A stretch of DNA of 37,026 nt from Minisyncoccota bacterium (GTDB taxonomy: Bacteria > Patescibacteriota > Minisyncoccia > Phycocordibacterales > UBA9973): contig JBBDZS010000001.1 in NCBI GenBank assembly GCA_040900015.1, positions 1 to 37,026 on the forward strand. The letters are read 5' to 3'. Of this stretch, positions 211-37,026 are shown in pieces. Below the pieces are notes generated by a model that had not been told where the DNA came from, made no database searches, and saw nothing but the letters and a program-made list of their open reading frames with translations. The position numbers were made by a program, and so were the translations under genes. Within the stretch, counting starts at the first letter, position 1, and every line of letters starts with the position of its first letter.

Positions 211-675
211 CTAAAAGCCAAAAAAATCCATTATTTTTTCTGATGGATGCTCTTTCATTTCTTCTTCGATCACACCCTTAACCGTAAAAATTTCATGGAC
301 CTTTTCCACAAGATATGATTCGAGAGGAACGGAAATTATAGGCACAAAAATTCGGTCGGAACGGATGAATAAATTGGGTTTCTCTTGATCTATCCAAAAG
401 GATTTGATGCTCTGGTAAAGATAGATTTGGTCGTGGATCTTTATGCCTTTGTCATTGAGTTCGAAGGTCACCATATCTGGATGTTTGGTGGCGAAGTATC
501 CGAGTAGGATTCCGCTTAGGACTATGAGGAGAGCGAAAAAATAATTACCAAAAATTGCGGAGGCCGCCGCCGATGCGAAGACGATGACGCCAAGTGCCCA
601 AAACCAATCGTCGCTCCGTTCTGTATGTTCGTATTCTAGCGCGGACCAGGAAATTGTTTCGACTGGGGTATTCAT
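211..675 (-). CDS. Hypothetical membrane protein with two N-terminal TM helices and a small soluble C-terminal domain (possibly bacterial PH-like)
   Basis: 154 aa ORF with hydrophobic stretches WFWALGVIVFASAAASAIF and FFALLIVLSGILLGYF. TATACT lies exactly 6 nt upstream of the ATG on the minus strand (682-687). Confidence 0.6.
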   Translation of the reverse strand: MNTPVETISWSALEYEHTERSDDWFWALGVIVFASAAASAIFGNYFFALLIVLSGILLGYFATKHPDMVTFELNDKGIKIHDQIYLYQSIKSFWIDQEKPNLFIRSDRIFVPIISVPLESYLVEKVHEIFTVKGVIEEEMKEHPSEKIMDFFGF

Positions 676-710
676 TTATAAAGTATACAAAGTGGGAGAG
701 GATATGTCTA

Positions 711-1499
711 TTAGATTTTCGTGTCAATTTCTACCTTAACGGAGGTTTCTTCAATTATTGGTTCAATTTCGCTTACTTCTTCGAGCATGGGCCCCTCTTC
801 GATTGTTCCCTCAAGAAGATCTTCGCTTTTTTCCTCTTCCGTTTCTCCGACTTCCTGGGTGGGATCAGCCGGCAGAGAAACTTTGGCCCTTACGGTGTTT
901 TCCAAAATTGTGATTTCAATTTCTTGTTTTTTGTCTGTTGTGGTTTTTGCTTCTTTCAAGACATCCGCTTGCGAGTTTAGGGATTTTTCGAATGAATCGC
1001 GAATTGCATCAGTTTTCAGTTTGGGAACCTCTGCTTTTGTTTCTTCTGATTTGATGGTTTTATCAAATTCGAGCACGCTCTTATTGAAAAGAATTTCTAT
1101 TTCCGCTCGATGTTCGGCGGTGAATTTATTGCGTTCCACTAGCTTGGTCGCTTCATCCAGACGGCGAAGGGCTTTTTGGGCCTGCCATTTTACTTGCGAT
1201 TCGCCGCTTCGATTTAGTGCGCCTAAGACAGGCTCGGCTACACGGACTTTGAATTTATACAAACTATCCCCGGGGATGGATCCGAGCGAAGCGGAAGTGA
1301 CGCTACCGCCGCTCATTACAAGCAACAACAGCGAAGCGAGAGTGTACACCAAAGGACGATGGGTAAATTTCCATTTACTAGGAATCGGCGCGTAAGGGGA
1401 TCTAACTCGGGTAGTAGTGACACGCTCCAAAATGATCCGTCTTTCCGTCGGGTCGAGCTTGATATTTTTTATTTCATTTTGAATGTCTTTTATTTTCAT
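711..1499 (-). CDS. Membrane-anchored anti-sigma-like protein (DUF5667-like) downstream of the ECF sigma factor
   Basis: The ORF track extends to 1712, but that part overlaps the sigma gene. The internal ATG at 1499 (MKIKDIQNEI...) lies 5 nt after the sigma stop codon. One TM helix (LVYTLASLLLLVMSGG) is followed by a GDSLYKFKVRVAEPV segment typical of DUF5667-type proteins and an acidic C-terminus. Confidence 0.6.
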   Translation of the reverse strand: MKIKDIQNEIKNIKLDPTERRIILERVTTTRVRSPYAPIPSKWKFTHRPLVYTLASLLLLVMSGGSVTSASLGSIPGDSLYKFKVRVAEPVLGALNRSGESQVKWQAQKALRRLDEATKLVERNKFTAEHRAEIEILFNKSVLEFDKTIKSEETKAEVPKLKTDAIRDSFEKSLNSQADVLKEAKTTTDKKQEIEITILENTVRAKVSLPADPTQEVGETEEEKSEDLLEGTIEEGPMLEEVSEIEPIIEETSVKVEIDTKI

Positions 1500-1504
1500 A
1501 TATT

Positions 1505-2035
1505 TTATACTAAATCTTCTATGTTCAGATATTTTTGGAGTTTTTTGATGCCCCTGGTAATTCGAATGGAGATAGTATTCGCGTTGCTCTCCAGCATGCG
1601 GGCGATCTCGGGAGGGGAGAGATCTTCGATCAACCTCAAATACACGGGTTCGCGATAAGGATCCGGGAGGAAATTTATCGCTTCTATTATCTCGGTTACT
1701 TCCGCAGACCAAATGATGTCCTTGCTTGCTTTGGGGTCTTCTGGCTCGAAATTTTTTTCATCTTCTCTTCGATGCATCATCGCATCAAGCGAGACGGATT
1801 TTTTTTTGCGGTACCAGTCGATAATGCGGTTGCGAAGGACTGCAAAAAGGAAAGCTCGGGGGTTGCGGATATCTTCGTCTTTTTGGAGGGCTTGCCAGAG
1901 CTCGATAAATACTTCTTGCACTATGTCTATCGCTTGGGCGCGATTGCTTATTCGAAACAAACAATAACGAAATAAGGTATCTGCCTCGTTAGCGTAAATC
2001 TCCTCAAAATATTCTTTTGTGTTGGGAGCTTTCAT
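1505..2035 (-). CDS. ECF-type RNA polymerase sigma-70 family factor
   Basis: 176 aa. Region 2-like (IVQEVFIELWQ, RAFLFAVLRNRIIDWYRKK) and region 4-like (YREPVYLRLIEDLSPPEIARMLESNANTISIRITRGIKKL) segments. Confidence 0.9.
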   Translation of the reverse strand: MKAPNTKEYFEEIYANEADTLFRYCLFRISNRAQAIDIVQEVFIELWQALQKDEDIRNPRAFLFAVLRNRIIDWYRKKKSVSLDAMMHRREDEKNFEPEDPKASKDIIWSAEVTEIIEAINFLPDPYREPVYLRLIEDLSPPEIARMLESNANTISIRITRGIKKLQKYLNIEDLV

Positions 2036-2140: not shown

Positions 2141-2674
2141 TTATTCGACTTTGATCCAAGTTCCCCAGTAGCGAGGTTGGCCGAGACCGCTAGGGTCGTT
2201 GGCGATGAATCGTATTACTAATGTTTTGCCTTTGAGGCTAGCTGGAATGGTGATTGCTTGCGATACTGGCACATAGCCGGTGGTCATCCATTCTCCCTCT
2301 GCAGTTACTACGGTGTTTGGGAGTCCGTCTGCTCGGGTGCCGATGTTTACTTCTGTGAGTCCATCATACAACTTCATTTGAGTTTCCGCTTCAAAGAACA
2401 TGTAGCCTCGTACCTCCGCAGATATGGTATTGGTTCCCACCTTGAGAGTTTCTGGTTCTAAATTTCGCACGGCATCTGCTACGAATGGCCCCGGAGCAGG
2501 GGGCACGACCACTTCGCTACCCTCCTCCACTTCTTCTTGCTCTATAATAGTGTCATTAATTATTTCGTTATTATTTATCTCCGGTTCGGCTTCGGGCTGA
2601 TTGATAAGTACGATATATCCTACTAGAACAATCAAAAGAATTACAACGATCGAAACAATATGTTTTGTTTGCAT
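2141..2674 (-). CDS. Membrane-anchored protein with a C-terminal Gmad2-like immunoglobulin-like domain
   Basis: Start trimmed to the ATG at 2674 (MQTKHIVSIVVILLIVLVGYIVLI, a signal anchor). The C-terminus (AEGEWMTTGYVPVSQAITIPASLKGKTLVIRFIANDPSGLG) resembles Gmad2. It overlaps the upstream gene by 34 nt. Confidence 0.6.
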   Translation of the reverse strand: MQTKHIVSIVVILLIVLVGYIVLINQPEAEPEINNNEIINDTIIEQEEVEEGSEVVVPPAPGPFVADAVRNLEPETLKVGTNTISAEVRGYMFFEAETQMKLYDGLTEVNIGTRADGLPNTVVTAEGEWMTTGYVPVSQAITIPASLKGKTLVIRFIANDPSGLGQPRYWGTWIKVE

Positions 2675-3249
2675 TTGTTTATTATACCACAAAATACGAT
2701 AGTTATCACCGCTCCTATCAGAGCGAGAGCCATATCTTTCACCGCATCCCATGGGTCTGTGCCGCCGACGAACAAATATGCCAGCTCCGGCGGAAGGGTG
2801 GTCGTACTTATCCATTCGTAAATTTCATAAACCGCGGAAAAGGATATAATTATGTTTATTGGCAAAAAATAGCTCCAGAAGCCACCGATATTTGTTGCTT
2901 TAAGGAAAAATTCACGAACAGGGTAGACCATCAGTAAGCCGAAAAGAAAATGCATTAGGCGGTCGTACTGATTGCGTTCGCTTCCGGTCCAGTCGCCCAG
3001 AATTTCTCCGAAAGGCACAAAACCGTAATTGTAATGTGCGCCCACTAAATGAAGAATGAGAAAGACCGTAATAATAGTATATGAAATATTTGAGAGTTTA
3101 AAATACCTTCCTAATATGATAATGATCGGGACCCATAGAAAAACTATAAAATTTTCCTGGAGCCAATTTTGAGGAGTCGCCGGCCCTATCGCCGACAATA
3201 TCCAAGCAATGGTAAATATAGTAATTAAAAAATAGTGATATTTGGTCAT
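2641..3249 (-). CDS. DUF2238 (E. coli YjdF-like) inner membrane protein
   Basis: Multi-TM ORF with LILHLVGAHYNYGFVPFG and NQYDRLMHFLFGLL segments typical of DUF2238. The ATG at 3249 is preferred. The ORF track start at 3273 is a TTG and remains an alternative. Confidence 0.7.
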   Translation of the reverse strand: MTKYHYFLITIFTIAWILSAIGPATPQNWLQENFIVFLWVPIIIILGRYFKLSNISYTIITVFLILHLVGAHYNYGFVPFGEILGDWTGSERNQYDRLMHFLFGLLMVYPVREFFLKATNIGGFWSYFLPINIIISFSAVYEIYEWISTTTLPPELAYLFVGGTDPWDAVKDMALALIGAVITIVFCGIINKCKQNILFRSL

Positions 3250-3439: not shown

Positions 3440-3979
3440 TTAAATCAACCTATCAAGTAACGGAAACTCTTTATACGGCTGATTATAATAATTAGAACCC
3501 ATATGCCCTTCATGTAAAACAATCTGAATTCCTCCAAGTTTATCAAACATAATTCGTCCCTGTTTATCATCACAAGTCCAAGGATCATTGTCTGAATTAA
3601 TAAAAATTAATTCTTTACATTTACCTTGTATTTCAGTCCAATTAAAATCTTCAGTATTCTTTTCAGCATTTGGAGTCATTCGTAAGGCCTTTGCATATCC
3701 AGAAACCATAATTGCTTGTGTAATGGGAGTTTTAATATTCTCTAATATGCTTAAGATTAATTGTGCTCCAGCGGAATGTCCGATCAAAACTGTTTCTTCA
3801 TTAAATTTTCCATTCTCTAAAACAAAAGAAAGCCAATCTTTTAGGTTCGGGGTTTCAGCATTTGGAAGTTGAGGAAGCCATACCTCAAAACCTTTTTGTT
3901 CTAACTTTTCTTTAATATATGGAAACCAGAAATCAGTATTTTTGTCACCTGTACCATGGAGTATAATCGCATTTTTCAT
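3440..3979 (-). CDS. Alpha/beta serine hydrolase, YdeN/RBBP9-like
   Basis: 179 aa. ILHG near the N-terminus, nucleophile elbow GHSAG and a late HxGH segment (LHEGHMG). The minus-strand sequence TGgTAAACT lies 6 nt upstream of the ATG. Confidence 0.75.
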   Translation of the reverse strand: MKNAIILHGTGDKNTDFWFPYIKEKLEQKGFEVWLPQLPNAETPNLKDWLSFVLENGKFNEETVLIGHSAGAQLILSILENIKTPITQAIMVSGYAKALRMTPNAEKNTEDFNWTEIQGKCKELIFINSDNDPWTCDDKQGRIMFDKLGGIQIVLHEGHMGSNYYNQPYKEFPLLDRLI

Positions 3980-4005
3980 GTTTTCAGTTTACCATAAAAC
4001 CGTTG

Positions 4006-4411: not shown

Positions 4412-4463
4412 CTAATACAAATCGATATTACCAAAAAAGAGCGTTTTATGCTAGTATTTTGAA

Positions 4464-4901
4464 ATGAGATTTCTCGGGATAGACTATGGAGAAAAGAGGA
4501 TTGGCATCGCAATTTCGGATGAAAATCTTAGCCTCGCATTTCCAAAAGAGATAATTCCAAATGATGCGAAACTACTCGGAAGGATAGGCGAAATATTAGA
4601 GGAAGAAAACATTTCGGAGATAGTGGTCGGTGAATCGGTCAATTTAGATGGTAGCCCGAATAAGATAGGGGAGAAGATAAACAGTTTTATCGAAGTGTTT
4701 AGAGAAAAATTTAATTTGCCCGTACATACAGAGAAGGAGTTTCTGACTTCTGTTGAAGCCAGAAAAAGTATTGAAGGGAAGAGCACTCTCAACACCAGTC
4801 AGGCGCACAGCAGGGCAAAAGAAGAAACAAGCGAGAGATATGACGCTAGTGCCGCGGCCCTAATCCTCCAGCGATTTTTGGACAAGAAGAATAAAAAATA
4901 A
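4464..4901 (+). CDS. ruvX: Holliday junction resolvase-like / pre-16S rRNA nuclease RuvX (YqgF)
   Basis: 145 aa starting MRFLGIDYGEKRIGIAISD, typical of YqgF. TGcTAGTAT lies 6 nt upstream of the ATG. Confidence 0.9.
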   Translation: MRFLGIDYGEKRIGIAISDENLSLAFPKEIIPNDAKLLGRIGEILEEENISEIVVGESVNLDGSPNKIGEKINSFIEVFREKFNLPVHTEKEFLTSVEARKSIEGKSTLNTSQAHSRAKEETSERYDASAAALILQRFLDKKNKK

Positions 4902-5232: not shown

Positions 5233-5262
5233 GTGCAAAAAATTGTGGCGGTATATTAATGG

Positions 5263-6366
5263 ATGTCGTATAATAAAAGAGCGATGTCGAAAAATTTATT
5301 TAGCAGATTTTTCCCTACCCCAGTATTTTTATCTATGCCGTCTTTCGGCCTTGATCTCTCAGATGAATCATTGAAATTTTTGGAATTGCTGGATACCAAA
5401 GAAGGGCTGAAAGTGGGTAGGCACGGAGAACGCAAAATTCCTCCAGGTATCATCGAATCCGGTAAGATTATTGATTCCAAGCGCCTCGAAGAAGTGCTCA
5501 CTAGCCTGCGTAAAGAAGAAGGCATTCATTCGGTGCGCGTTTCTCTTCCTGAAGAGCAAGTCTATTTGTTTTCGATTCGTCTGGAAAAGGCGGGGCTGGT
5601 AAGCATACGCGAAGGCATTGAGCTCGCGCTCGAAGAACACATACCGATTCCCGCGGAGGATGCAATTTTCGATTACGAGGTTACCAACGAAGACGAAAAG
5701 ACAATATATTTGGAAGTGGCGGCAATTCCTAAGAATGTGATTGAAGAATATCTTTCAGTTTTTGCCCACTCGGCTATTTTTGTGAACGCGTTCGAGATCG
5801 AGGCTCAGGCTATATCGAGAGCAGTGATAAAAAAAGGAGATATGGGTACATATATGATAGTGGATTTCGGGGAAAAAAGGACAGGGATATTCATAATTTC
5901 GCGAGGGGTCGTGATGTTCGCTTCCACACTCGATGTGGGCGGGGTGATGCTTACCAATATGATCAAAAAGAGCTTCAATGTCAGTTATGAAGAAGCGGAG
6001 CAGATGAAAAAAACTTACGGACTCAAGCGTAATGCGGAAAATAAGGAAATATTTGCGGTATTATTAAACAGCGTTTCGATTCTGCGCGATGAAATTGTGA
6101 AGCATTTCCTGTATTGGCATACTCATAAAGATGAGGAGGGTAAGAACAATCCACCCATCAAGAGCATCATTCTCTGTGGAGGGGATTCAAATCTGATTGG
6201 TCTACCGGATTATTTTTCTGTAAGCATGCAAAATACAGTAGAAATGGCGGATGTGTGGGTCAACATAGATAATACCGCAAGGTCAGTGCCCGGAATAAAT
6301 TTCAAGCAGGCGCTTTCGTTCGCTGCATCTATCGGGCTTGCTTTGGCTAATTTCGAATACGATTAA
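5263..6366 (+). CDS. pilM: Type IV pilus assembly protein PilM (actin-like ATPase fold)
   Basis: 367 aa. GLDLSDESLKFLEL..., IVDFGEKRTGIFI and ILCGGDSNLIGLPDYF are typical of PilM, and PilN/PilO-like genes follow. The alternative start at 5284 (MSKNLF) is equally possible. Confidence 0.85.
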   Translation: MSYNKRAMSKNLFSRFFPTPVFLSMPSFGLDLSDESLKFLELLDTKEGLKVGRHGERKIPPGIIESGKIIDSKRLEEVLTSLRKEEGIHSVRVSLPEEQVYLFSIRLEKAGLVSIREGIELALEEHIPIPAEDAIFDYEVTNEDEKTIYLEVAAIPKNVIEEYLSVFAHSAIFVNAFEIEAQAISRAVIKKGDMGTYMIVDFGEKRTGIFIISRGVVMFASTLDVGGVMLTNMIKKSFNVSYEEAEQMKKTYGLKRNAENKEIFAVLLNSVSILRDEIVKHFLYWHTHKDEEGKNNPPIKSIILCGGDSNLIGLPDYFSVSMQNTVEMADVWVNIDNTARSVPGINFKQALSFAASIGLALANFEYD

Positions 6367-6912: not shown

Positions 6913-6960
6913 TTATGACCCATTCGATCAAACTCAGGGTCATGGTGATACAATAGAACC

Positions 6961-7488
6961 ATGAAAATAAATTTTAGAAAAATACCCTTTCTCATCTCGG
7001 TCACGCTACTTTTCGTCGCGGTTTTTGCTTTTTCAGCAATTTATATGAAGACAGCAGAAAATAATAGAGAAGCCGAAGAATTGATCGGACAATGGAGAGT
7101 AGAGCTCGATCGCAGAGAAGAAATTAAGTCTCTTGAGAGATCGATTCAGATGTTTGATGTGGAAATGAAGTCTCTCGACACCCATTTTGCCTACGGACAA
7201 GATGTGGTACCTTTCTTAAACACAGTTGAAAGCTTGGCCCGAGCCACAGGAGCCGACCCAGAGATACTTTCGGTGGCTACTTCGGAAGAGGAGGAAATCC
7301 TCATAGTCAGAATGTCCGCCGAGGGTAGTTTTGAATCATTGTACAAATTTCTAAAATTACTCGAAAATTCGCCATATGAACTCCGCTTTGCATTAGTTGA
7401 TTTGAGTTCGAAAGATGGGCCAAACGGTGTGAGAAGTGGCTCCTGGCAGTTGATGCTTAATTTCAAATTACTAACTTTTATCAGATAA
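6961..7488 (+). CDS. PilO-like pilus assembly protein
   Basis: 175 aa with an N-terminal TM helix, a coiled-coil segment and a ferredoxin-like C-terminus. The call rests on position after pilM/pilN. TGaTACAAT lies 6 nt upstream of the ATG. Confidence 0.55.
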   Translation: MKINFRKIPFLISVTLLFVAVFAFSAIYMKTAENNREAEELIGQWRVELDRREEIKSLERSIQMFDVEMKSLDTHFAYGQDVVPFLNTVESLARATGADPEILSVATSEEEEILIVRMSAEGSFESLYKFLKLLENSPYELRFALVDLSSKDGPNGVRSGSWQLMLNFKLLTFIR

Positions 7489-7801: not shown

Positions 7802-7821
7802 AAATGGTAATTTAGTGCTAG

Positions 7822-8050: not shown

Positions 8051-8122
8051 GCCTTCGTAGTTCAATGGATAGAACAGGACTCTTCTAAGGTCTTGATGTA
8101 GGTTCGATTCCTACCGAAGGCA
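8051..8122 (+). tRNA. tRNA-Arg (anticodon TCT)
   Basis: GCCTTCG-TA-GTTCAATGGATAGAAC-A-GGACT-CTTCTAA-GGTCT-TGAT-GTAGGTTCGATTCCTAC-CGAAGGC-A. Confidence 0.9.
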
Positions 8123-8123
8123 C

Positions 8124-8825
8124 ATGAAAATTAAAATCTTATATGAAGACGCAAATATTCTAGTAGTAGACAAGCCGAGCGGGATAGCTGTGCATCCCGA
8201 TGGACGCACCAAAGAAAAAACTTTGACCGATTGGGTCATAAAAAATTACCCTAGAATGAAGAATGTGGGGGAGCCTCTTGGAGAAATATCGCGACCGGGA
8301 GTAGTACATCGGCTGGATCGCGACACTTCGGGGGTTCTTCTTCTTGCAAAAAACCAAAAGGCTTATGAATTCCTGAAGAATCAGTTTAAAGAGAGGAGCA
8401 TTAAAAAAATATATAACGCAATCGTCTCTGGTTGGCCGAAAAATGACCGGGGTGTGGTGAACAAGCCGATTGGTCGCAGTCCAAATGATTTTCGTCGGTG
8501 GCTGGCTGGGCGGGGTGCTCGCGGAGAGCTACGTGAATCTATAACCGAATATAAAGTTTTAAAAAGATTTAGTGATAAAAACGGAAAGTGGAGCTATCTG
8601 GAAATCAAGCCAAAGACCGGCCGAACTCATCAAATCCGCGTGCATATGAAGTATTTAAGTTTTCCTGTGGCGAATGATGCTTTGTACAATCCCGGTAAAA
8701 GAGGCCCCGTAGGTATCAAAAGGATGGCGCTTCATGCGCTGTCTATAGAGTTGAAAGATTTGAAGGGCAAAACGCTAAAAGTTGAATCCTCCTTACCAAA
8801 AGAATTCAAGGAGGTGCTAAAATAA
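8124..8825 (+). CDS. RluA-family pseudouridine synthase without an S4 domain
   Basis: 233 aa. ILVVDKPSGIAVHP, HRLDRDTSGVLLLAK and TGRTHQIRVH motifs. The ATG begins 1 nt after the tRNA-Arg discriminator base. Confidence 0.9.
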   Translation: MKIKILYEDANILVVDKPSGIAVHPDGRTKEKTLTDWVIKNYPRMKNVGEPLGEISRPGVVHRLDRDTSGVLLLAKNQKAYEFLKNQFKERSIKKIYNAIVSGWPKNDRGVVNKPIGRSPNDFRRWLAGRGARGELRESITEYKVLKRFSDKNGKWSYLEIKPKTGRTHQIRVHMKYLSFPVANDALYNPGKRGPVGIKRMALHALSIELKDLKGKTLKVESSLPKEFKEVLK

Positions 8826-8885: not shown

Positions 8886-8914
8886 TTGCAAAAGCAGAGG
8901 CTTTATGGTAAATT
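8886..8914 (+). promoter_or_regulatory. Sigma-70-like promoter for rplS (TTGCAA - 17 nt - TAAATT, with TGg upstream of the -10)
   Basis: Hexamers read at 8886-8891 and 8909-8914. The ATG is 9 nt downstream of the -10. Confidence 0.5.
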
Positions 8915-8923
8915 GAATCCACT

Positions 8924-9428: not shown

Positions 9429-9454
9429 CATTTAGCTGTGTTATAATAAGGTCA

Positions 9455-27094: not shown

Positions 27095-27132
27095 ATTGCT
27101 ATTGTAGCTTACGGGAAGGATTTAATAAAACA

Positions 27133-27161: not shown

Positions 27162-27204
27162 TTATATATCATTCTCACCTATACATATTTGGGAGTGACC
27201 CATT

Positions 27205-28491: not shown

Positions 28492-28519
28492 TTGCTAGTG
28501 CCTCTTGTTTGTATATAAT
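28492..28519 (+). promoter_or_regulatory. Promoter TTGCTA - 16 nt - TATAAT; the ATG lies 6 nt after the -10
   Basis: Hexamers at 28492-28497 and 28514-28519. The ATG is at 28526. Confidence 0.55.
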
Positions 28520-28525
28520 TAGTAA

Positions 28526-29572
28526 ATGCTGGGCAATTTTACCTTTAAATTCGCACCTAAACCTTCTGCCACAAAAGAAGGTTTGCCACCAACTGAGGAA
28601 GGTCTGACTGAAAACTTGGAAGCTATATGGGCGAAAGAAAGAAAAGAAGGCGACCCAGAAATAAAGGTTTGTTTTGTTTTTGGTTATCATTACAACAATC
28701 TGGATCTAACAGAGCTTAAAAAAGAATACGCAGATGCAGACGTATTCATTCCTGAAAGTGCTGGTGCCGGAGATATCGGCGAAAAACTGTATCAAAATGT
28801 ATCTGCGGGTATTTGGTCGGTAGATGAGCTAGAAAAGAAAGTACCATACCTGGGAGATTTTACTTTTGCATTATTGCGAATGATTTATAACTCCAAAAAG
28901 TCTGTAGTAGTAGCCGATGTTCCTTCTAGGCATAGTTCTGTTGTGGAGCAAGAAGCAATTATAGAATTAAGCAAGAAGCAATTAGCTATCAAATCGCTAC
29001 AGGAGAAAGTATCTCTGATGAAAGAAAGCATCATTAGGCAAGTTGCAGCAAATACAGAAAGAGATAACTTTATAGCTCAACAGATACCCAGAAGACTTAG
29101 GAAGTTAATTGATGGTAATTCAAAAATAAGGACAAAGGCTTCACTTAAGGTTCTTGTTTTCCTTGGAATAATCCACACTCCTGTTTTTGCAAAAATGCAG
29201 AGGTCTAAAAAACCTGAAGTTTCAAGAAAATTTGAATTAGATGGGTCTAGCTTTTCCGTTTTCCAACATACTGACGAATTATTCAGAAGAATCATGGCTG
29301 GCCAGGTAGCTGATTCCATAAGTGCTGAGTTGTGGGAGAAAGCCGTATTTGGTTCTGAACTAGGTCATTACCTACTTGTTTATTATCGTTCCGAAATCAA
29401 AAAAATAAGCGGTAAAAAATTAATAGATATAGTACGCAAGATTCCAGAGTCTTTTACGAGAGATGATATTAGAACCGTATATAATTCAGTTGAAAAGGGC
29501 GAGAATTTTATGCTAGCATTTTTGGGTGTTTGCAAGTCTAAAAATATCGATGTAAGTGGTTTGTTTAACTAA
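28526..29572 (+). CDS. Hypothetical protein, 348 aa, no family recognised
   Basis: A long ORF with native AT-rich composition and a leaderless-type promoter. I can name no diagnostic motif. FGYHY...DVFIPESAG is only faintly reminiscent of TraB/GumN/Tiki-type proteins. Confidence 0.6.
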   Translation: MLGNFTFKFAPKPSATKEGLPPTEEGLTENLEAIWAKERKEGDPEIKVCFVFGYHYNNLDLTELKKEYADADVFIPESAGAGDIGEKLYQNVSAGIWSVDELEKKVPYLGDFTFALLRMIYNSKKSVVVADVPSRHSSVVEQEAIIELSKKQLAIKSLQEKVSLMKESIIRQVAANTERDNFIAQQIPRRLRKLIDGNSKIRTKASLKVLVFLGIIHTPVFAKMQRSKKPEVSRKFELDGSSFSVFQHTDELFRRIMAGQVADSISAELWEKAVFGSELGHYLLVYYRSEIKKISGKKLIDIVRKIPESFTRDDIRTVYNSVEKGENFMLAFLGVCKSKNIDVSGLFN

Positions 29573-29611
29573 ATTCGATTTATATTTTTTATTACTTACT
29601 CAACTTCCCAT

Positions 29612-29651
29612 CTAAAACCAAAGAAGCCCCGAAGACCCCTTTGGGACCTTC
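29612..29651 (-). terminator. Strand-specific hairpin plus T-rich tail downstream of the zinc-ribbon ORF
   Basis: The minus-strand RNA would form GAAGGUCCC-AAA-GGGGUCUUC (9 bp, two G-U pairs), followed by GGGGCTTCTTTGGTTTT. On the plus strand the same positions would be A-C mismatches. Confidence 0.4.
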
Positions 29652-29670
29652 AGGACTCGTTGCGGTCCGC

Positions 29671-29901
29671 CTAGTGGCGGACACGATTGCTCCTGCACCC
29701 CCGCGCGAACCAGAGCGCGCGACCGATGCATTCGTCGCCGCAGTAATCCCCCGGATGTGGGGGCCTGCCGTCTCTCCCCGCATCGTCGGGTGGGAGCTCG
29801 TAGTAGAGGACTCCGGTAGGAATCCTCCCATCACACCACCTACACTTGAGTGGCTTTTCAGCCTTTTTCCAAGCGCTGGCTTTTGTTGCTTCGATTTGCA
29901 T
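29671..29901 (-). CDS. Small Cys4 zinc-ribbon protein (TRASH/FCS-like spacing), GC-rich island 3
   Basis: 76 aa with CRWC...x29...CGDEC. GGAGG lies 6 nt upstream of the ATG. A promoter-like element and a hairpin flank the ORF. Confidence 0.55.
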   Translation of the reverse strand: MQIEATKASAWKKAEKPLKCRWCDGRIPTGVLYYELPPDDAGRDGRPPHPGDYCGDECIGRALWFARGCRSNRVRH

Positions 29902-30344: not shown

Positions 30345-30369
30345 TTATGCTATCATTATAAATACGATT

Positions 30370-30990
30370 ATGCAAGCCATCGATGCGGTTTTTTATATAG
30401 CCATACTGGTAATGTCTATTGTCATACACGAGATATCGCACGGGTTTGCAGCCGAGTATTTCGGCGATAAGACAGCCCGTCATGCAGGCAGATTGACTCT
30501 AAATCCAATCAAGCATCTCGATCTTTTCGGCTCAATTTTATTACCAGCATTTTTGGTGCTTACGAAGGCAGGTTTTCTTTTCGGATGGGCCAAGCCGGTG
30601 CCTTACAATCCGGATAATTTGAGCAACCGCAAGTGGGGGAGCTTCGCCGTGGCCGCGGCAGGAATACTCGCTAACTTTTTCATTGCTATTATTTTCGGGC
30701 TGATAATTCGGTTTTCTGTAGGGGCAATAGATTCCGCACCGTTTTATTTCATCACTTCGACTATCGTTCTTTTGAACTTGGCTCTGGGTATATTTAACCT
30801 CATTCCCATACCGCCACTCGATGGATCGAAGATACTTTTCTCGCTTTTACCTTACTCATATCAAAATGTGATTGATTTTATCGAGCAGTATTCCCTTATT
30901 CTCTTGGTCGTCGTCGTAGTCTTTCTATCTAGGTTCTTGTTTCCGGTTTTGTCCTTCTTGTTCACTTTGCTTACTGGGCTGCCCATATAG
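30370..30990 (+). CDS. Site-2 protease family (peptidase M50) membrane metalloprotease
   Basis: 206 aa. HEISHG (HExxH) in TM1 and a NLIPIPPLDGSK motif. Confidence 0.9.
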   Translation: MQAIDAVFYIAILVMSIVIHEISHGFAAEYFGDKTARHAGRLTLNPIKHLDLFGSILLPAFLVLTKAGFLFGWAKPVPYNPDNLSNRKWGSFAVAAAGILANFFIAIIFGLIIRFSVGAIDSAPFYFITSTIVLLNLALGIFNLIPIPPLDGSKILFSLLPYSYQNVIDFIEQYSLILLVVVVVFLSRFLFPVLSFLFTLLTGLPI

Positions 30991-31085
30991 GGGGTCGCAG
31001 TTGCATTTTTAAGGCTTTTATAGTAGATTATTCTAGTGCTTAATTGGAGTCTTCGGACTCTTTTATTTTACGCAAACAGTATTTT

Positions 31086-31511
31086 ATGCCAACAATTAAC
31101 CAATTAATAAAGAAAAGTCGGGTCAAGACCCACCGCAAATCCAAGACTGTGGCATTGGCGCGCGGGTTCAATGTGCTTCAGAACCGCCCCGTATTCTTTC
31201 CTGCGCCTTTCAAGAGAGGGGTTTGCACCAAGGTTTCCACCACCACACCAAAAAAGCCTAACTCTGCGCTTCGAAAGATTGCTCGGGTAAGACTTACCAA
31301 CGGCATGGAGGTGACTGCATATATTCCCGGAGAAGGACACAATTTACAAGAACACTCTGTGGTAATGCTCCGAGGAGGACGCGTGAAGGACTTGATCGGA
31401 GTCCGATATCACATCGTGCGTGGTGTGCTCGACACCCAAGGAGTGGAGAAACGAAGACAGGGCCGATCTTTATACGGAAACAAGAAGCCTAAGGCTGGAG
31501 CAAAGAAATAA
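31086..31511 (+). CDS. rpsL: 30S ribosomal protein S12
   Basis: Start trimmed to the ATG at 31086 ([10 protein letters not shown]...). [10 protein letters not shown] and the C-terminal RGVLDTQGV are uS12 hallmarks. Confidence 0.95.
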
Positions 31512-31521
31512 TTTATAAAAT

Positions 31522-31992
31522 ATGAGACGCAAAGTAAAAAATAGAAATATAGTAGAACCGGATTTTATATACAACTCCCAAAAGTTGGAGAAATTTATCA
31601 ATTACATTATGTGGTCCGGCAAGAAGGAAACATCTCGCAAGGTCATGTACGCTGCACTCGACACTATCAAAGAAAAAACAGGCAACCCCAATCCTTTGGA
31701 AGTTTTCGATTTAGCTATGAAAAACGCCGGTCCGATGACCGAAGTTCGCTCCAAGAGAATCGGAGGCGCCAACTATCAGGTGCCTCGCGAAGTGCGCCCC
31801 GAGCGCAGGCTCGCTCTTGCTATGCGTTGGATTCGCGATGCCTCTCGAGGAGGCAAGGGCAAGCCTATGCACATCAAGCTCGCCGATGAACTTATCGCCG
31901 CTTCCAAGAACGAAGGCTCGGCAATCAAAAAGAAAGAAGATACTCACAAGATGGCCGAAGCCAACAAAGCCTTCGCCCACTTTGCTTGGTAG
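31522..31992 (+). CDS. rpsG: 30S ribosomal protein S7
   Basis: 156 aa. GKKETSRKVMYAAL, RIGGANYQVPREV and the C-terminal AFAHFAW. Confidence 0.95.
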   Translation: MRRKVKNRNIVEPDFIYNSQKLEKFINYIMWSGKKETSRKVMYAALDTIKEKTGNPNPLEVFDLAMKNAGPMTEVRSKRIGGANYQVPREVRPERRLALAMRWIRDASRGGKGKPMHIKLADELIAASKNEGSAIKKKEDTHKMAEANKAFAHFAW

Positions 31993-32037
31993 GGTTCGCT
32001 CACTGCTTTTGCAACTTTTATAATTAAAACACATTTT

Positions 32038-32067
32038 TACACATATACGCTATAGCGTATATGTGTA
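32038..32067. repeat. Perfect 30 bp palindrome (P1) immediately upstream of the Cas2-like ORF promoter
   Basis: TACACATATACGCTA|TAGCGTATATGTGTA. It ends 4 nt before TGaTATAAT. Confidence 0.9.
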
Positions 32068-32071
32068 TCTT

Positions 32072-32080
32072 TGATATAAT
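32072..32080 (+). promoter_or_regulatory. Extended -10 promoter TGaTATAAT; the ATG lies 6 nt downstream
   Basis: TG at 32072-32073, TATAAT at 32075-32080, ATG at 32087. Confidence 0.55.
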
Positions 32081-32086
32081 GTTTTT

Positions 32087-32473
32087 ATGAGGAAGAAGAC
32101 ATTTTACTATAAAGGCATTAAGGTAAATGCTTTTGGTCTACCGATATTATCTGAGAATAAAAAACGTCTAAAGAGAAAAAACCGCAAAAGAAATTTTTAT
32201 CATACTGCTTTTTCTTCGTCATTTAGCAAAGACTCTCCTAAAAATCTTATTTTAATGTACGATGTAGTAGAAGCTAAAAAGAAAGAAAGAGATTGGTTTC
32301 GCCGGCAGTTGAAAAATTTTAATTACATAATGATTCAGAGAAGCGTTTGGGTCGGCCCATCGCCTTTGCCAAAGGAGTTTTTGGATTATGTAAAGGAAAT
32401 TGGCTTACAAAGACACATAAAGACTTTCAAACTAGCCAAGCCGTACACAGGTAAAGAAAGTGTATTTAAATAA
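32087..32473 (+). CDS. Cas2-like / PaaX C-terminal-like ferredoxin-fold protein with a basic N-terminal extension (solo, no cas1 and no array)
   Basis: 128 aa. LILMYDVVEAKKKERDWFRRQLKNFNYIMIQRSVWVGPSPLP follows the beta-alpha-beta pattern (hydrophobic-YD-I/V ... R ... Q-x-SVW/F) that I associate with Cas2 and PaaX-C domains. The assignment comes from pattern memory only. Confidence 0.45.
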   Translation: MRKKTFYYKGIKVNAFGLPILSENKKRLKRKNRKRNFYHTAFSSSFSKDSPKNLILMYDVVEAKKKERDWFRRQLKNFNYIMIQRSVWVGPSPLPKEFLDYVKEIGLQRHIKTFKLAKPYTGKESVFK

Positions 32474-32478
32474 TATTT

Positions 32479-32506
32479 ACATATTTACGCTATCGCGCAT
32501 ATATGT
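32479..32506. repeat. Imperfect 28 bp palindrome (P2), a degenerate copy of P1, 5 nt after the Cas2-like ORF stop codon
   Basis: ACATATTTACGCTATCGCGCATATATGT. 11 of 14 arm positions pair. It shares ACATAT..TACGCTAT..GCG..ATAT.TGT with P1. Confidence 0.75.
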
Positions 32507-32580
32507 TATGTGAACAACCTAACTTGCCAATAGGTATTGGAGATATATACTTTAAGTATTATAAGTTAAATAATATTTTT

Positions 32581-32724
32581 ATGGCTAAAAGCGTAGATGA
32601 ATGCAGAAGAGAAATTCAACATTGGACAAGTGAATTGGACAAAGCTCAAAGAGAATTGAAATGGTGGACAGATGAGCTAGGTAAGGCAATCAGAGAGGAA
32701 AGTGATAGAACAAAAAATAAGTAG
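32581..32724 (+). CDS. 47 aa coiled-coil mini-protein with an internal tandem repeat
   Basis: Start trimmed to the ATG at 32581 (MAKSVDECRREIQHWTSELDKAQRELKWWTDELGKAIREESDRTKNK). The repeat units are HWTSELDKAQRE and WWTDELGKAIRE. Whether it is truly coding is uncertain. Confidence 0.35.
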   Translation: MAKSVDECRREIQHWTSELDKAQRELKWWTDELGKAIREESDRTKNK

Positions 32725-32757
32725 TATTATTAAGTTTTTAATTTAATCAATAAATTT

Positions 32758-33114
32758 ATGTCAATGGAAAATAATATGTCATCTGGCGACAGGAAACCAG
32801 GGCCAACCCCTGAACAGATAAAAGCACACGAAGAGATTGAAGCAAAAAAAGAGCGAAGGGAGTTGGAAGTGAAAACATATATAGATGAGATTGTTGCCTC
32901 CTTTTTAGAAGATAGTCCAGATGCAACAATAGACGATTTAAAGAGGGAAATTATTTATCAGAGAGAACTAGCGAGGGAAGCGGCTAATTATTTGTCCAAC
33001 AAACATCATACGGAAGTTGGTATGAAGCCAAAGAAATTAGTTGATTTCAAGGCTGGTCAAGATACCAGGAGCCCACATGATTGGATGAGTATTCCTTGGA
33101 ATAAAGGACACTAG
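32758..33114 (+). CDS. Hypothetical protein, 118 aa, no family recognised
   Basis: An ORF in an AT-rich cassette, charged and helical. The alternative start codons at residues 3 and 7 are equally possible. Confidence 0.45.
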   Translation: MSMENNMSSGDRKPGPTPEQIKAHEEIEAKKERRELEVKTYIDEIVASFLEDSPDATIDDLKREIIYQRELAREAANYLSNKHHTEVGMKPKKLVDFKAGQDTRSPHDWMSIPWNKGH

Positions 33115-33268
33115 TTTTTTGGCTAGCTAGGCAAGACTTAGCAAGTTAGTTTTAGTGCTTGCAATTCCGAAGCTTTAGCGTAGGACTGTGCATAACTCAT
33201 CCTTGCCAAGCCCTATCGGAGGGGGGTACACTTTGGGTATTATTAAATATAATTTATTTTAAAATATT

Positions 33269-33808
33269 ATGAGTACAGGAAATCCCAACTTTGATGAGCA
33301 AAATCCAGGTAGTGGAAAGCCAGAAAAAGTGGGACTCGAAGTTGATTATCGTAAGATATTCGATCATGAGCGTTCCAGAATGGATAGAAAATATCCTAAT
33401 TGTAATTTTGTTCCCGGCTCTCTAGAGGTTGTCGAAATTCACGATCGAGCGACTAAAAGAGCAGTGCAAGAAGTATTGGAAAACATGATTTGGGACGGAG
33501 AAATTAAAATATTGAGTTGGGGAAATATTGGAGAAGCTAGAGACAATAATAAAGATGAGGGAAGAAGAGAAGAAATAATAGAAACTCTTGCCTTTGGATA
33601 TACAAATGCTTTGGTTCATAATGGAGGTTTGACAATAACTTTAAGCAAAATGTTTCCTGAACTTTCTGAAACAGAAGCACAACAACTAGCGATTGATTTT
33701 AAAAAAATTCTAGATAGGGTTTCAGAACTAATCCCATCGGCACACTGGGAAGGCAGAATCGAAATTAAAACTCAAGGCGACAAGTTGTCGTTTTCAGCAA
33801 TTAAATAA
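33269..33808 (+). CDS. Hypothetical protein, 179 aa, no family recognised
   Basis: The last ORF of the cassette, followed by a hairpin plus T6. Confidence 0.5.
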   Translation: MSTGNPNFDEQNPGSGKPEKVGLEVDYRKIFDHERSRMDRKYPNCNFVPGSLEVVEIHDRATKRAVQEVLENMIWDGEIKILSWGNIGEARDNNKDEGRREEIIETLAFGYTNALVHNGGLTITLSKMFPELSETEAQQLAIDFKKILDRVSELIPSAHWEGRIEIKTQGDKLSFSAIK

Positions 33809-33818
33809 AAGTATTTAA

Positions 33819-33847
33819 TTGCAATTAAAAGGTTTTTAGTATATATT
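33819..33847 (+). promoter_or_regulatory. Promoter-like element TTGCAA - 17 nt - TATATT upstream of fusA
   Basis: Hexamers at 33819-33824 and 33842-33847. The -35 lies inside the perfect palindrome TTAATTGCAATTAA (33815-33828). Confidence 0.45.
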
Positions 33848-33852
33848 GTTCT

Positions 33853-33873
33853 GAGCGCATTTGGCGCTTTTTT
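33853..33873 (+). terminator. Hairpin plus T6 (terminator of the cassette, or a 5' stem-loop of the fusA leader)
   Basis: GAGCGC-atttg-GCGCTT followed by TTTT. It begins about 6 nt after the -10 element above. Confidence 0.55.
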
Positions 33874-33890
33874 ATTACCTAATCAAACAT

Positions 33891-36038
33891 ATGGAACGAG
33901 ATTATCCACTAGAGAAAGTTAGAAATTTTGGAATTATTGCGCATATTGATGCGGGCAAGACCACCACGACCGAGCGGGTGCTTTTTTATACTGGAGTTTC
34001 TCATAAAATAGGTGAGGTGCACGATGGTGAGACCACTACCGACTGGATGGAGCAGGAGCGCGAACGAGGTATCACGATCACTTCCGCTGCGGTGACTTGT
34101 TTCTGGACGCCAACATATGACCTTAAGAACAAAGCGCTCAAACATCGTTTTAATATTATTGATACTCCCGGACACATCGACTTTACCGTAGAGGTGAAGC
34201 GTTCTTTGCGAGTGCTCGACGGCGCAGTTGTCGTATTCGATGGGGTGGCCGGAGTGGAACCGCAGTCAGAGACTAATTGGAGATACGCGGACGAGGCCAA
34301 AGTTCCTCGCATATGTTTCATCAACAAACTCGACCGAACAGGAGCATCTTTCGAACATTCTTACGCGACCATTCTGGATAGATTGAGCAAGAGGGCTGTG
34401 CGCGTGCAAATTCCCATCGGGCTTGAGGAAAATTTCGAAGGTGTAGTTGACCTCCTAAAAATGAAAGCCTACTACTTTGAAGGTGAAATGGGCAATCAAG
34501 TTGTTGAAAAAGAAATTCCGGAAAACTTGAAAGCGGATGCTGAGAAATTTCACTCCGAGCTTGTGGAGAAAATAGTCGAGACCGACGACGCGATGATGAC
34601 TGAATATTTGGAAGGCATTGTCCCTAATCTCGAAGTACTCAAAAAGACTTTGCGTAAGGCTGTAATTGAAAATACCATTTTCCCAGTATTTGCTGGGAGC
34701 GCCCTTAAGAACAAGGGAGTTCAGCTCGTGCTCGACGCAGTCGTGGACTATCTACCCGCTCCGACGGATATTCCAGCTATCACCGGAATCAATGCTAACA
34801 CCGAAGAGCCAGAGGACAGACATGCATCTGATTCTGAGCCTTTTTCTGCACTTGCTTTTAAGATTGCGACCGACCCATTCGTCGGGCAAATCATCTTTTT
34901 CCGGGTTTACTCTGGACGACTAACAGCCGGAAGTTATGTTTACAATCCTCGCACTAGGAATAAGGAAAGAATTGGGCGCATACTGCGAATGCATGCCAAT
35001 GACCGCGAAGAAGTGAAAGAAGTTTTTGCTGGAGAAATTGCAGCTGCGGTGGGACTCAAGGACACTATCACTTCCGACACTCTTTGCGATGAAAACAACC
35101 CTATCATCTTGGATCGAATCGTCTTCCCTGAACCAGTCATCTCTCTCCGTATCGAGCCGAAGACCAAGGCCGACCAGGAAAAAATGGGTATGGCGCTCAA
35201 TCGCCTTGCGCAGGAAGATCCTACTTTCAAAGTTACAACAGATCAGGAGACGGGCGAAACTATTATTGCCGGTATGGGAGAATTGCATCTAGAAATAATT
35301 GTGGATCGAATGAAGAGAGAGTTTGCCGTAGAGGCGAACGTTGGCAAACCTCAGGTGGCATATCGCGAGACTATCAATGGCAGTAGCGAAGCCGAGGGCA
35401 AGTACATCAAGCAATCTGGAGGGCGTGGAAACTACGGCCACGTCAAGATCAAGGTCAGGCCGATGGAAATGCTTACCAAAGAAGAAATCGAAGATCTACC
35501 GAAGAACACCAAGCGTGCTCCCGGCTTCGAATTCGTCAATACTATCAAAGGTGGAGTCATTCCTCAGGAATATATTCCTGCCTGTGAAAAAGGATTTAAG
35601 GAAGGCCTCGACCGAGGTATTCTGGCTGGATTTAAAATGGTCAATGTTTCGGTGGAGCTCTGGGACGGAAGCTATCACGAAGTGGACTCCAACGAAATGG
35701 CATTCAAAATCGCAGCATCTATGGCTATCCAGGATGCTTGCCGTCGTGCGAACCCTGTCATCCTCGAGCCTATGATGAAAGTAGAAGTCGTCACTCCGGA
35801 CAAGTTTATGGGCGATGTCACCGGCAACCTGTCCTCCAAGCGAGGACTGATCGAAGGCATGGAAGATCGGGGTATGAACAAAGTGGTGAAGGCGATAGTG
35901 CCTCTGTCCGAAATGTTCGGATACATGACCGGCCTGCGCTCTATGACCGAAGGTCGCGCATCATTCACTATGGAATTCTTCCGCTACGACATAGTTCCAC
36001 AGAATGTAGCCGAAACTATTATCTCTGCAAGGAAATAA
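33891..36038 (+). CDS. fusA: Translation elongation factor G
   Basis: Start trimmed to the ATG at 33891 ([35 protein letters not shown]). DTPGHIDF and NKLDR are present, and all five domains are recognisable. The ORF track start at 33861 is a TTG that lies inside the hairpin. Confidence 0.95.
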
Positions 36039-36052
36039 GATATAATGGGGCT

Positions 36053-37026
36053 ATGCTCTATACTCCATTTTACGACCCCGAGAAAACCTACGAAGACAAC
36101 TATAACGAAGGTCCTTTTGGGGCCTTTGCCGATGGAGCAAAAATTACACAGGGGAACCCTGTGCAAAAATACGATTTTCTTGGATTTAAAGTAAATTCGC
36201 CTTTTGGTATTCCGGCCGGACCGCTCATTAACGGCAAGTTTGTGAAAGGAGCGCTCGATAAAGGTTTTGATGTTGTGACATACAAGACCGTACGGAGTGA
36301 AAAATATCCATGTCACCCATGGCCTAACGTTTTGTCGGTCAAAATTGACGGCGATCTGACCTTGGAAAAAGCGGAAGGTAAGCTGGTGGCGGACAGGAAT
36401 TACCACGAACCGCTTTCTATTACGAACTCTTTTGGTGTGCCTTCTCGGGGAAAAGAATTTTGGCAGAAGGATTTGACTGAGACGGTAAAAAGCGCACGCG
36501 AAGGACAGGTCGTCGTCGGATCTTTCCAAGGTACCAAGAAAGAAGGACAGAGCGGAGAGGAATATATAGATGATTATCGGATAACAGCCAAAATGCTTTT
36601 AGAAACGGGCGTCAAGGTAATGGAAGTAAATCTGAGCTGTCCGAACGAAGGCACCAATAACCTCCTTTGTTATGACACAGAAAGAAGTGTAAAGGTGGCA
36701 AAAGCAATTAAGGAAGTGATTGGTAATATTCCGCTGGTGATAAAAATAGCATACTTTAAAGATGAAGAAGAGCTTCGTAATTTGGTAAAGGAGATAGGTT
36801 CTGTTGTAGAAGGGATTTCTGCGATAAATACCATTTCTGCGGAAATCGTGGATGAGAACGGCAGTCAGGCGTTGCCGGGAGAAGGGAGATTGCGAAGTGG
36901 TGTCTGCGGGCATGCTATCCGGTGGGCTGGACTGGATATGGTTAAGAAATTAAAAAAATTGCGAGAGGAATTTGGCTATAACTATTCGATTATCGGTGTA
37001 GGGGGAGTGACCACAGCGGATGATTT
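36053..37026 (+). CDS. Dihydroorotate dehydrogenase-like (class 1 DHOD/DHPD family) protein, 3'-truncated by the window edge
   Basis: I translated this frame by hand: MLYTPFYDPEKTYEDNYNEGPFG...FKVNSPFGIPAGPL...VMEVNLSCPN...SIIGVGGV. It is not in the ORF track because no stop codon occurs before the window end. TATAAT lies 6 nt upstream of the ATG. Confidence 0.75.
   Translation, partial: MLYTPFYDPEKTYEDNYNEGPFGAFADGAKITQGNPVQKYDFLGFKVNSPFGIPAGPLINGKFVKGALDKGFDVVTYKTVRSEKYPCHPWPNVLSVKIDGDLTLEKAEGKLVADRNYHEPLSITNSFGVPSRGKEFWQKDLTETVKSAREGQVVVGSFQGTKKEGQSGEEYIDDYRITAKMLLETGVKVMEVNLSCPNEGTNNLLCYDTERSVKVAKAIKEVIGNIPLVIKIAYFKDEEELRNLVKEIGSVVEGISAINTISAEIVDENGSQALPGEGRLRSGVCGHAIRWAGLDMVKKLKKLREEFGYNYSIIGVGGVTTADD

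Follow-up and report, generated by a model that had tools for sequence, protein, structure and literature searches.

We analyzed a 37,026-nucleotide (nt) stretch of contig JBBDZS010000001.1 (the window, taken at its full length) for a recurrent arrangement in which a promoter-like -10 hexamer is followed by exactly 6 nt and the ATG of a gene. The window has a GC content of 42% and reads as genetic code 11 with long open reading frames (ORFs). It carries ruvX, pilM, bL19, a histidine kinase and a response regulator, VKOR, a P-type ATPase, Nramp and murB, together with nusG, uL11, DHFR, thyA, a DEAD-box helicase, bL28, uS12, uS7 and EF-G, a gene set typical for a small genome of the Candidate Phyla Radiation (CPR). 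The closest relatives of its MurB, at 56–67% identity, come from genomes labelled 'Patescibacteria group', Candidatus (Ca.) Nomurabacteria and Ca. Paceibacteria, and matches in Bacteroidota and others are more distant. Judged by these matches, the lineage belongs to the Patescibacteria (CPR), Parcubacteria/Paceibacteria group, near Ca. Nomurabacteria. Identical DNA was found in the Logan assembly of SRR27977660, the sole matching assembly. As relatives we used 7 CPR genome loci (121 kb) and 80 metagenome loci (817 kb), together ~0.94 Mb; the metagenome loci were picked by a NusG search (73–93% NusG identity), and GC content across the lineage ranges from 31 to 51%. Seventeen non-CPR loci from the same NusG search, mostly Bacteroidota, served as the control. 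In the window, 44 hand-picked ORF starts without overlap were tested, and starts in the relatives were set by a first-ATG rule.

A preliminary description of this DNA had listed 13 sites with a -10 hexamer, 6 nt and ATG. Hexamers, spacers and ATG coordinates all proved exact, and 12 of the 13 hexamers fit TANNNT; the other is CATAAT at 17107–17112, preceded by TGt. Exactly seven sites have the TGn of an extended -10 element, and none of the 13 has a Shine-Dalgarno (SD) sequence in its 6-nt spacer. On the plus strand, the extended sites precede ruvX (TGcTAGTAT, 6 nt, ATG 4464; 4449–4466), whose Pfam RuvX profile aligned from residue 1; a hypothetical gene of 175 amino acids (aa) (TGaTACAAT, 6 nt, ATG 6961; 6946–6963); VKOR (TGcTATACT, 6 nt, ATG 12658; 12643–12660), in which the geometry is kept in 5/8 orthologues; Nramp (TGtCATAAT, 6 nt, ATG 17119; 17104–17121), with a TAGAAA -35 at 17 nt; the gene for a 235-aa protein after uL11 (TGcTAAAAT, 6 nt, ATG 21697; 21682–21699), in which the geometry is found in 4/4 orthologues; and a gene for a Cas2-like/PaaX_M protein (TGaTATAAT, 6 nt, ATG 32087; 32072–32089). 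The seventh lies on the minus strand before a serine hydrolase gene (TGgTAAACT, 6 nt, ATG 3979; 3977–3994), 25 nt past tRNA-Ser.

The remaining plus-strand sites precede murB (TAGTAT, 6 nt, ATG 18388; 18376–18390), where the hexamer overlaps the Nramp stop codon; the dCMP deaminase gene (TTGGCT-17-TATATT, 6 nt, ATG 24822; 24810–24824); a hypothetical gene of 348 aa (TTGCTA-16-TATAAT, 6 nt, ATG 28526; 28514–28528); and the dihydroorotate dehydrogenase gene (TATAAT, 6 nt, ATG 36053; 36041–36055). On the minus strand they precede a hypothetical 154-aa gene (TATACT at 682–687, 6 nt, ATG 675; 673–687), with a TAGACA -35-like hexamer 17 nt upstream, and thyA (TACAAT, 6 nt, ATG 27094; 27092–27106).

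We found three further sites. The F420-ligase-like gene has TAAAAT, 6 nt and ATG 22920 (22908–22922, plus strand); this promoter lies within the preceding gene, and the geometry is present in 5/11 orthologues. The other two are on the minus strand and concern start codons that had been set too far upstream. TGgTATAAT (hexamer 2681–2686), with a GTGATA -35 at 17 nt, stands 6 nt before ATG 2674 (2672–2689), probably the true start of the ORF 2141..2815, and starting there does away with a 175-nt overlap of two ORFs. TAGTAT at 1507–1512 stands 7 nt before ATG 1499 (1497–1512), probably the true start of the ORF 711..1712, a DUF5667 gene that begins 5 nt past the stop codon of a sigma-factor gene. 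That neighbor encodes a sigma factor of the extracytoplasmic function (ECF) type (Sigma70_r2 + r4_2; 1505–2035, minus strand; the pair occupies the 711–2035 region), and the DUF5667 protein is possibly its anti-sigma partner. Since an ECF sigma factor gene is present, the organism has promoters besides the sigma-70 type analyzed here.

The four near misses of the preliminary description (9455, 30370, 5263 and 20536) have the sequences and spacings it gave, and they fared differently as candidates. pilM has TATATT 5 nt before ATG 5263 (5252–5265, plus strand). The MASE1/PAS histidine kinase has TGtTATAAT 7 nt before TTG 9455 (9439–9457, plus strand), and the Logan gene call starts at ATG 9563; TTG 9455 is doubtful as a leaderless start because the peak described below is confined to ATG, with none at TTG. 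The M50 peptidase has TATAAA 7 nt before ATG 30370 (30348–30372, plus strand). Its conserved element in relatives is TGcTATCAT, 9–13 nt upstream, instead of TATAAA, and a short leader is therefore predicted. nusG at 20536, with a 5-nt spacer, was rejected, its upstream region not being conserved and the geometry occurring in just 12/82 family members. Together with the three new sites, 5263 and 9455 bring the further candidates to five, and about 18 of ~46 window genes have the geometry at a spacer of 5–7 nt.

The offset profile of TANNNT, which the preliminary description had offered as a genome-wide check, shows a sharp peak when run on the window starts. At spacer 6 the motif precedes 14/44 starts, and the counts at the other spacers between 0 and 30 are 0–6; shuffling the upstream regions 2000 times with dinucleotides preserved yielded 1.64 on average and 6 at most. 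Among non-start ATGs, 18/1054 (1.7%) have TANNNT at spacer 6 (binomial P ~1e-14). The peak also appears when no gene calls are used: the window has 10 copies of TGNTANNNT-N6-ATG, compared with 0–4 at other spacings from 0 to 25, and 8/10 of these copies begin an ORF of 80 aa or longer. These numbers bear on the possibility that the arrangement arises by chance in an A/T-rich genome through a biased choice of start codons. The upstream regions are indeed A/T-rich and TANNNT is a loose motif, and one match, TACGAT before the gene at 6370, is probably due to chance. As a general explanation, however, chance is refuted by the shuffles and the non-start ATGs, by the same peak in tests that used no gene calls, and by the N-termini, since Pfam profiles and orthologues agree with those called.

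The geometry recurs in the relatives. In the metagenome loci we counted 44 instances of TATAAT-N6-ATG that lead into an ORF of 80 aa or longer, versus ~3 at other spacings; for TGNTANNNT the counts were 64 (N6) and 37 (N7), versus a background of ~5. With called genes, TANNNT is found at spacer 6 in 144/876 genes of the related metagenome loci, and other spacers give 22–62. The 17 control loci have a flat profile with no spacer-6 peak. When proteins from the window and the relatives were clustered, 262/1040 genes had a 6- or 7-nt spacer, and 109/338 protein families had at least one such member; the peak is therefore not a matter of a few orthologous promoters counted repeatedly. Some families have the 6–7-nt spacer consistently (thyA 21/36, dCMP deaminase 14/24, VKOR 6/13, F420-ligase-like 6/13) and others never (DEAD-box helicase 0/19, bL19 0/11, an ATP-grasp gene 0/10).

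Among orthologues of VKOR, murB, the genes at 21697, 22920 and 24822, and thyA, the spacing is constant while the nucleotides of the spacer vary. Examples of kept spacing are tgcTATACTaatttt, tgcTATACTatttcc and tgtTAGAATggcacc for VKOR and TAGTATctacat, tgtCATAATtaaaat and TATACTtagaga-GTG for murB, which has a spacer of 6 or 7 nt in 8/21 orthologues. The thyA orthologue in locus L002 retains TATACT-6 nt-ATG despite a shifted start codon. bL19 has an arrangement of its own, in which TGgTAAATT stands 9 nt before ATG 8924 (8906–8926, plus strand), a spacing conserved in four genomes. The element, TGnTAAAnT 9 nt before the start, is seen in the window and in L004, L015 and L009, and the predicted leader is 2–3 nt, which suggests that the 9-nt spacing marks a class of 2–3-nt leaders. 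The response regulator of the window likewise has a 9-nt spacer (TTGATT-17-TATAAT, ATG 11652; 11637–11654, plus strand) and a predicted very short leader.

We characterized the motif in 181 genes of the window and relatives chosen solely on T-12, A-11 and T-7, so that all other positions were unselected. At these positions an extended -10 element emerged (T-15 0.56, G-14 0.51), along with the rest of TATAAT (T-10 0.55, A-9 0.70, A-8 0.61) and a -35 TTG at a 17-nt spacer (T-35 0.54, T-34 0.49, G-33 0.33). T-1 was 0.55, giving a pyrimidine at -1 and a purine at +1. At least 4/6 matches to the -35 hexamer were found in 34% of the selected sites versus 14% of other genes. The peak is specific for ATG (84 at N6 and 47 at N7, window and relatives), and GTG, TTG, AAG and ATA show none. 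Leaderless mRNAs need a 5′-terminal AUG, and the ATG-only peak agrees with this.

The same element precedes tRNA genes: TGnTANNNT lies 8 nt before the mature tRNA 5′ end, for example TGgTAATTT at 7806–7814 with tRNA-Val at 7822. Because tRNAs are not translated and have the same element before them, it is a transcription signal. Terminator hairpins stand directly before two of the sites, at 24739–24769 (a strong hairpin, before 24822) and at 32038–32067 (before 32087). The motif is missing from coupled genes, which start between a 17-nt overlap with the preceding gene and 10 nt past its stop codon (4903, 7493, 13135, 22388, 25333, 26147 on the minus strand, and 31522); the coupled gene at 6370 has the TACGAT mentioned above.

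An alternative would be that the A/T-rich hexamer is an SD-independent translation signal in longer 5′ untranslated regions (UTRs), such as an S1-binding or standby site similar to the motif of group B in the GeneMarkS-2 classification. That the clade hardly uses SD, as set out below, makes another mRNA signal expectable, and most upstream regions are A/T-rich and often end in 'aaattt ATG'. Bacteroidota of group B are likewise poor in SD use and A/T-rich upstream. We nevertheless regard this alternative as very unlikely. It is at odds with the promoter features (TG at -15/-14, the TTG -35 at 17 nt and the pyrimidine at -1), with the occurrence of the motif before tRNA genes, with the several sites directly behind terminator hairpins, and with the lack of a peak in the mostly Bacteroidota controls. 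Furthermore, in group B the motif stands before every gene and cannot be a promoter (PMC6028130), whereas the motif described here is found at unit-initial genes and is missing from operon-internal coupled ones. With the hexamer at -12 to -7, the canonical transcription start site falls on the A of the ATG, and the motif, by all its features at the DNA level, is best described as a sigma-70 promoter with +1 at that position.

In five relatives (L004, L015, L057, L062 and L097), the tRNA-Leu genes likewise have an extended -10 element 8 nt before their 5′ end, and predicted tRNA 5′ leaders are consequently ~1 nt. The tRNA-His genes have a conserved TGaTATAAA 11–12 nt upstream.

Some start codons abut the 3′ end of a tRNA gene. 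In the window, the stem of tRNA-Arg(tct) ends at 8121, followed by the discriminator A at 8122, a C, and ATG 8124 of a gene for an RluA-type pseudouridine synthase (8051–8126, plus strand), with no -10 element inside the tRNA. ATG 15866 of a PAP2-Sua5/TsaC fusion gene comes 6 nt after tRNA-His (15788–15868, plus strand), and a promoter-like TGcTATAAC lies upstream of this tRNA at 15768–15776. Five further cases were found in relatives (L004 8276–8350, L031 1267–1345, L043 4118–4197, L088 1523–1600 and L015 3967–4055). The starts range from a 1-nt overlap to 6 nt past the tRNA 3′ end, with no promoter between; in one relative's tRNA-His the ATG lies 1 nt past the 3′ end given by ARAGORN, and according to the tRNA folds the ATG comes 1–7 nt after the discriminator base. 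No -10 element was found inside the abutting tRNAs.

Of 31 tRNA-to-coding-sequence distances, 7 are at -1 to 6 nt, none at 7–19 nt and 8 at 20–37 nt; among pairs of coding sequences 15.3% are at 7–19 nt, and the gap after tRNAs has P ~0.006. Some of the cases at 20–37 nt have their own -10 element at 6 nt, such as the gene at 3979 after tRNA-Ser and the one after tRNA-His in L087. The distances are suggestive of co-transcription followed by excision of the tRNA, which would leave an mRNA leader of at most 7 nt; the numbers are small and partly orthologous. This resembles the tRNA punctuation of mitochondria in that the starts at 8124 and 15866 and those of the five relatives abut tRNA 3′ ends. 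It differs in that the cases are few and several are orthologous, most units have their own promoter, and the processing is putative. The fusion gene after tRNA-His joins a PAP2 phosphatase domain and Sua5/YciO/YrdC (TsaC) in one 406-aa ORF (15866–17086), and in most relatives the alignment covers the Sua5 half only.

SD-like 4-mers at -18 to -5 were found upstream of 9.9% of clade genes versus 7.7% in a control region, and SD 5-mers upstream of 5.4% versus 3.4%. From these upstream sequences, SD appears to be almost unused in the clade. In the window, SD is absent upstream of the bL19, nusG, uL11, bL28, uS12 (31086), uS7 and EF-G (33891) genes. Since SD is barely above background and these genes of the translation apparatus do without it, the alternative to leaderless initiation would be mainly coupling and SD-less leaders, not SD. 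The picture of a mixed regime in the preliminary description would need to be revised in this respect.

The start positions of uS12 and EF-G follow from Pfam alignment, with MPTINQL at 31086 and MERDYPL at 33891. A longest-ORF rule mis-sets at least four window starts (2815 for 2674 and 1712 for 1499, both on the minus strand, 31044 for 31086 and 33861 for 33891), and standard callers that rely on a ribosome-binding site are likely to mis-call starts in the clade. In the leaders of both uS12 (31046–31061) and EF-G (33853–33869) we observed a hairpin followed by a U-tract. The str operon to which they belong is split in the window (31044–36038) by three genes between uS12/uS7 and EF-G, at 32087 (the Cas2-like/PaaX_M gene), 32758 and 33269, with GC contents of 33–40%.

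The six SD sequences singled out in the preliminary description, at 12143, 29901, 23719, 13135, 19471 and 27205, are present as described. It had further proposed that compositionally foreign genes keep SD together with long leaders. SD-like motifs do precede three GC outliers, at 12143 (66% GC), 29901 on the minus strand (60%) and 23719 (54%), but the leaders are short. The gene at 29901 is a 76-aa ORF on the minus strand (29671..29901) with the layout TTGAAA-16-TATAGT-6 nt-GGAGG-6 nt-ATG, and with TATAGT merely 6 nt before GGAGG its leader would be short rather than long. Clade-wide, strong-SD genes are slightly shifted in GC content (+2.2% versus +0.6%, P = 0.03), and the contrast between foreign genes that keep SD and the rest is weakly supported. 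Two GC-rich islands (12120–12640 and 29600–29900, 60–66% GC) hold small ORFs behind the strong SD-like GGGAGGTGG and GGAGG. They may be foreign insertions; the two small ORFs are unrelated to one another when compared, and the 29600–29900 island had no meaningful Rfam match as a structured RNA.

The DEAD-box helicase gene is a contrast case. Its promoter, TTGACA-17-TGnTATACT (27133–27161), is the best full promoter in the window and lies upstream of a leader of ~37 nt that ends at ATG 27205 (27133–27207, plus strand). The leader contains a conserved block, TTGGGAGTGACCCATT (window, L002 and L015), and may be a regulatory 5′ UTR beyond a mere SD.

We consider it probable that leaderless mRNAs are produced in this SD-poor Parcubacteria clade by sigma-70 promoters placed in register with start codons, and the claim of the preliminary description that promoter-proximal genes are leaderless, with a -10 element in register with the start, agrees with every in silico test that was run. 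What we observed directly is the geometry together with its statistics, promoter character and conservation. According to the mechanism we propose, many units would have a sigma-70-type promoter with the -10 hexamer at -12 to -7 from the A of the ATG, often an extended -10 of the form TGnTAtaaT, whose -35, a TTG at 17 nt, is weak. Transcription would then begin at the A of the ATG and give an mRNA without a 5′ UTR, and the ribosome would initiate directly at the 5′-terminal AUG with no SD pairing, a step we propose by analogy with Actinobacteria, Deinococcus, archaea and mitochondria. Downstream cistrons, from a 17-nt overlap to 10 nt past the preceding stop codon, would probably depend on termination-reinitiation coupling for their translation. 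SD-less leaders would occur at a minority of first genes (uS12, EF-G, nusG, uL11, bL28 and the DEAD-box helicase), and SD pairing would play almost no role in the clade. By the upstream sequences, between about a quarter and a third of the genes would have a promoter placed for transcription to start on the ATG.

Several points weigh against this account. A generic -35/-10 scan of the window gave 42 hits versus 35.6 expected and 36 versus 33.7, no enrichment over shuffles, and the signal is revealed only by its register with ATG. The geometry is not uniform, with minor clade-wide peaks at spacers 7 and 9, and the relatives are drawn from two syntenic neighborhoods rather than from whole genomes. 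Both the position of the transcription start and the mechanism of translation are inferred. The choice of start by the polymerase varies by 1–2 nt, so some transcripts could have leaders of 1–3 nt, and where promoters lie within or right after upstream genes (18388, 22920 and 36053) polycistronic read-through transcripts may coexist.

The last points lead to the possibility that the promoters are real but secondary or internal, that the main transcripts arise by read-through or start a few nt upstream, and that mRNAs with a 5′-terminal AUG are minor species. Genes are tightly packed on one strand, and -10 boxes overlap the end or stop codon of the preceding gene (18376–18381 for murB, and 22908–22913), as would be expected in that case; the enrichment of spacers 7 and 9 and the conserved 9-nt spacer of bL19 also fit. 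The sharp 6-nt, ATG-specific mode, by contrast, is hard to explain without selection on a 5′-terminal AUG, and at 4464, 27094 (minus strand), 24822 and 32087 the sites follow terminators or lie in divergent regions, where no read-through is possible. We therefore regard secondary promoters as an unlikely explanation of the geometry.

Translation of leaderless mRNAs is well known from Actinobacteria, Deinococcus, archaea and mitochondria, and the best reading of our data is a regime of this known kind in a lineage that is new for it. In the classification of GeneMarkS-2, group C genomes have a Pribnow box 6–8 nt before the start of the first genes of operons; they are mostly Actinobacteria and Deinococcus-Thermus, with a predicted leaderless share of ~25–50% of transcripts (PMC6028130). 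The window and its clade share with such genomes (M. tuberculosis, D. deserti) the TANNNT geometry, with the -10 box 6–8 nt before unit-initial starts, a motif that is a promoter element, ATG as the 5′ codon (AUG, rarely GUG, in group C) and a similar share of genes. They differ in that the remaining genes of group C use SD, whereas SD is essentially not enriched here, and in that the genomes are Patescibacteria with 31–51% GC and strongly extended (TGn) -10 promoters; group C genomes with code 11 are almost all high-GC (bioRxiv 10.1101/2022.07.25.500264). Low-GC group C genomes with code 4 (Mycoplasma), in which MetaGeneMark-2 predicts 30–60% of transcripts to be leaderless (bioRxiv 10.1101/2022.07.25.500264), are likewise small and reduced, but their SD-type model of the ribosome-binding site persists, whereas the window reads as code 11 and no SD signal was found in the clade. 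In the open-access full-text literature, which leaves out subscription journals, we found no paper that ties leaderless initiation to Patescibacteria, CPR, Parcubacteria or Saccharibacteria, and none with both 'leaderless' and 'Parcubacteria'; the few that have 'leaderless' beside CPR terms mention it in passing, as far as examined. CPR genomes may have been silently classed as group C earlier.

The window bears on a second peculiarity of Parcubacteria. Its uL11 gene (21250–22404 region) is followed by the 235-aa ORF, not by uL1. A search with E. coli uL1 (Pfam E = 2.9e-67) gave no match in any of the 63 sequences that extend >900 nt beyond uL11, namely the window plus 62 related loci, and in none of the related loci was a uL1-like sequence found in the stretch of up to ~10 kb behind uL11. 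For these reasons the clade, as far as these loci go, fits the uL1-less subgroup of Parcubacteria. The 235-aa ORF had no Pfam match even at E = 0.1 and no sequence match in the PDB; as a general replacement of uL1 it was rejected, being present in just 4/62 related loci with enough sequence. A subgroup of Parcubacteria without uL1 and the anti-SD motif was reportedly the subject of work by Brown in 2015. Just 48% of Parcubacteria were found to carry the anti-SD motif (Tsurumaki et al, 2022; PMC9297842), and the lineages without it overlap the group that lacks uL1, a functional link that these authors left open. The clade described here resembles these lineages in having no uL1 after uL11 and almost no SD use. 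The likeness rests on these two traits, as the window holds no 16S gene, and no rRNA genes were found in the window with Rfam or in 106 fetched loci by motif scans. It differs in the kind of evidence, which consists of rRNA and ribosomal protein losses in that study (PMC9297842) and of upstream regions that point to leaderless initiation here. The near-absence of SD fits a loss of anti-SD, and a mechanism is suggested by the leaderless geometry.

We tentatively extend this to the proposal that the uL1-less clade has essentially abandoned SD, that its first cistrons are presented with a 5′-AUG, either by a promoter with +1 on the ATG or by excision of a tRNA, and that the rest are reached by reinitiation. 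If true, this would explain how roughly half of Parcubacteria, whose ribosomes lack anti-SD, locate their start codons. The -10/6-nt rule could be used for calling start codons in CPR genomes, and expression cassettes for CPR genetic tools should probably be leaderless and built on extended -10 promoters. In-register promoters of this kind would thus offer a concrete, testable answer to the question of initiation that was left open for Parcubacteria lacking anti-SD (PMC9297842).

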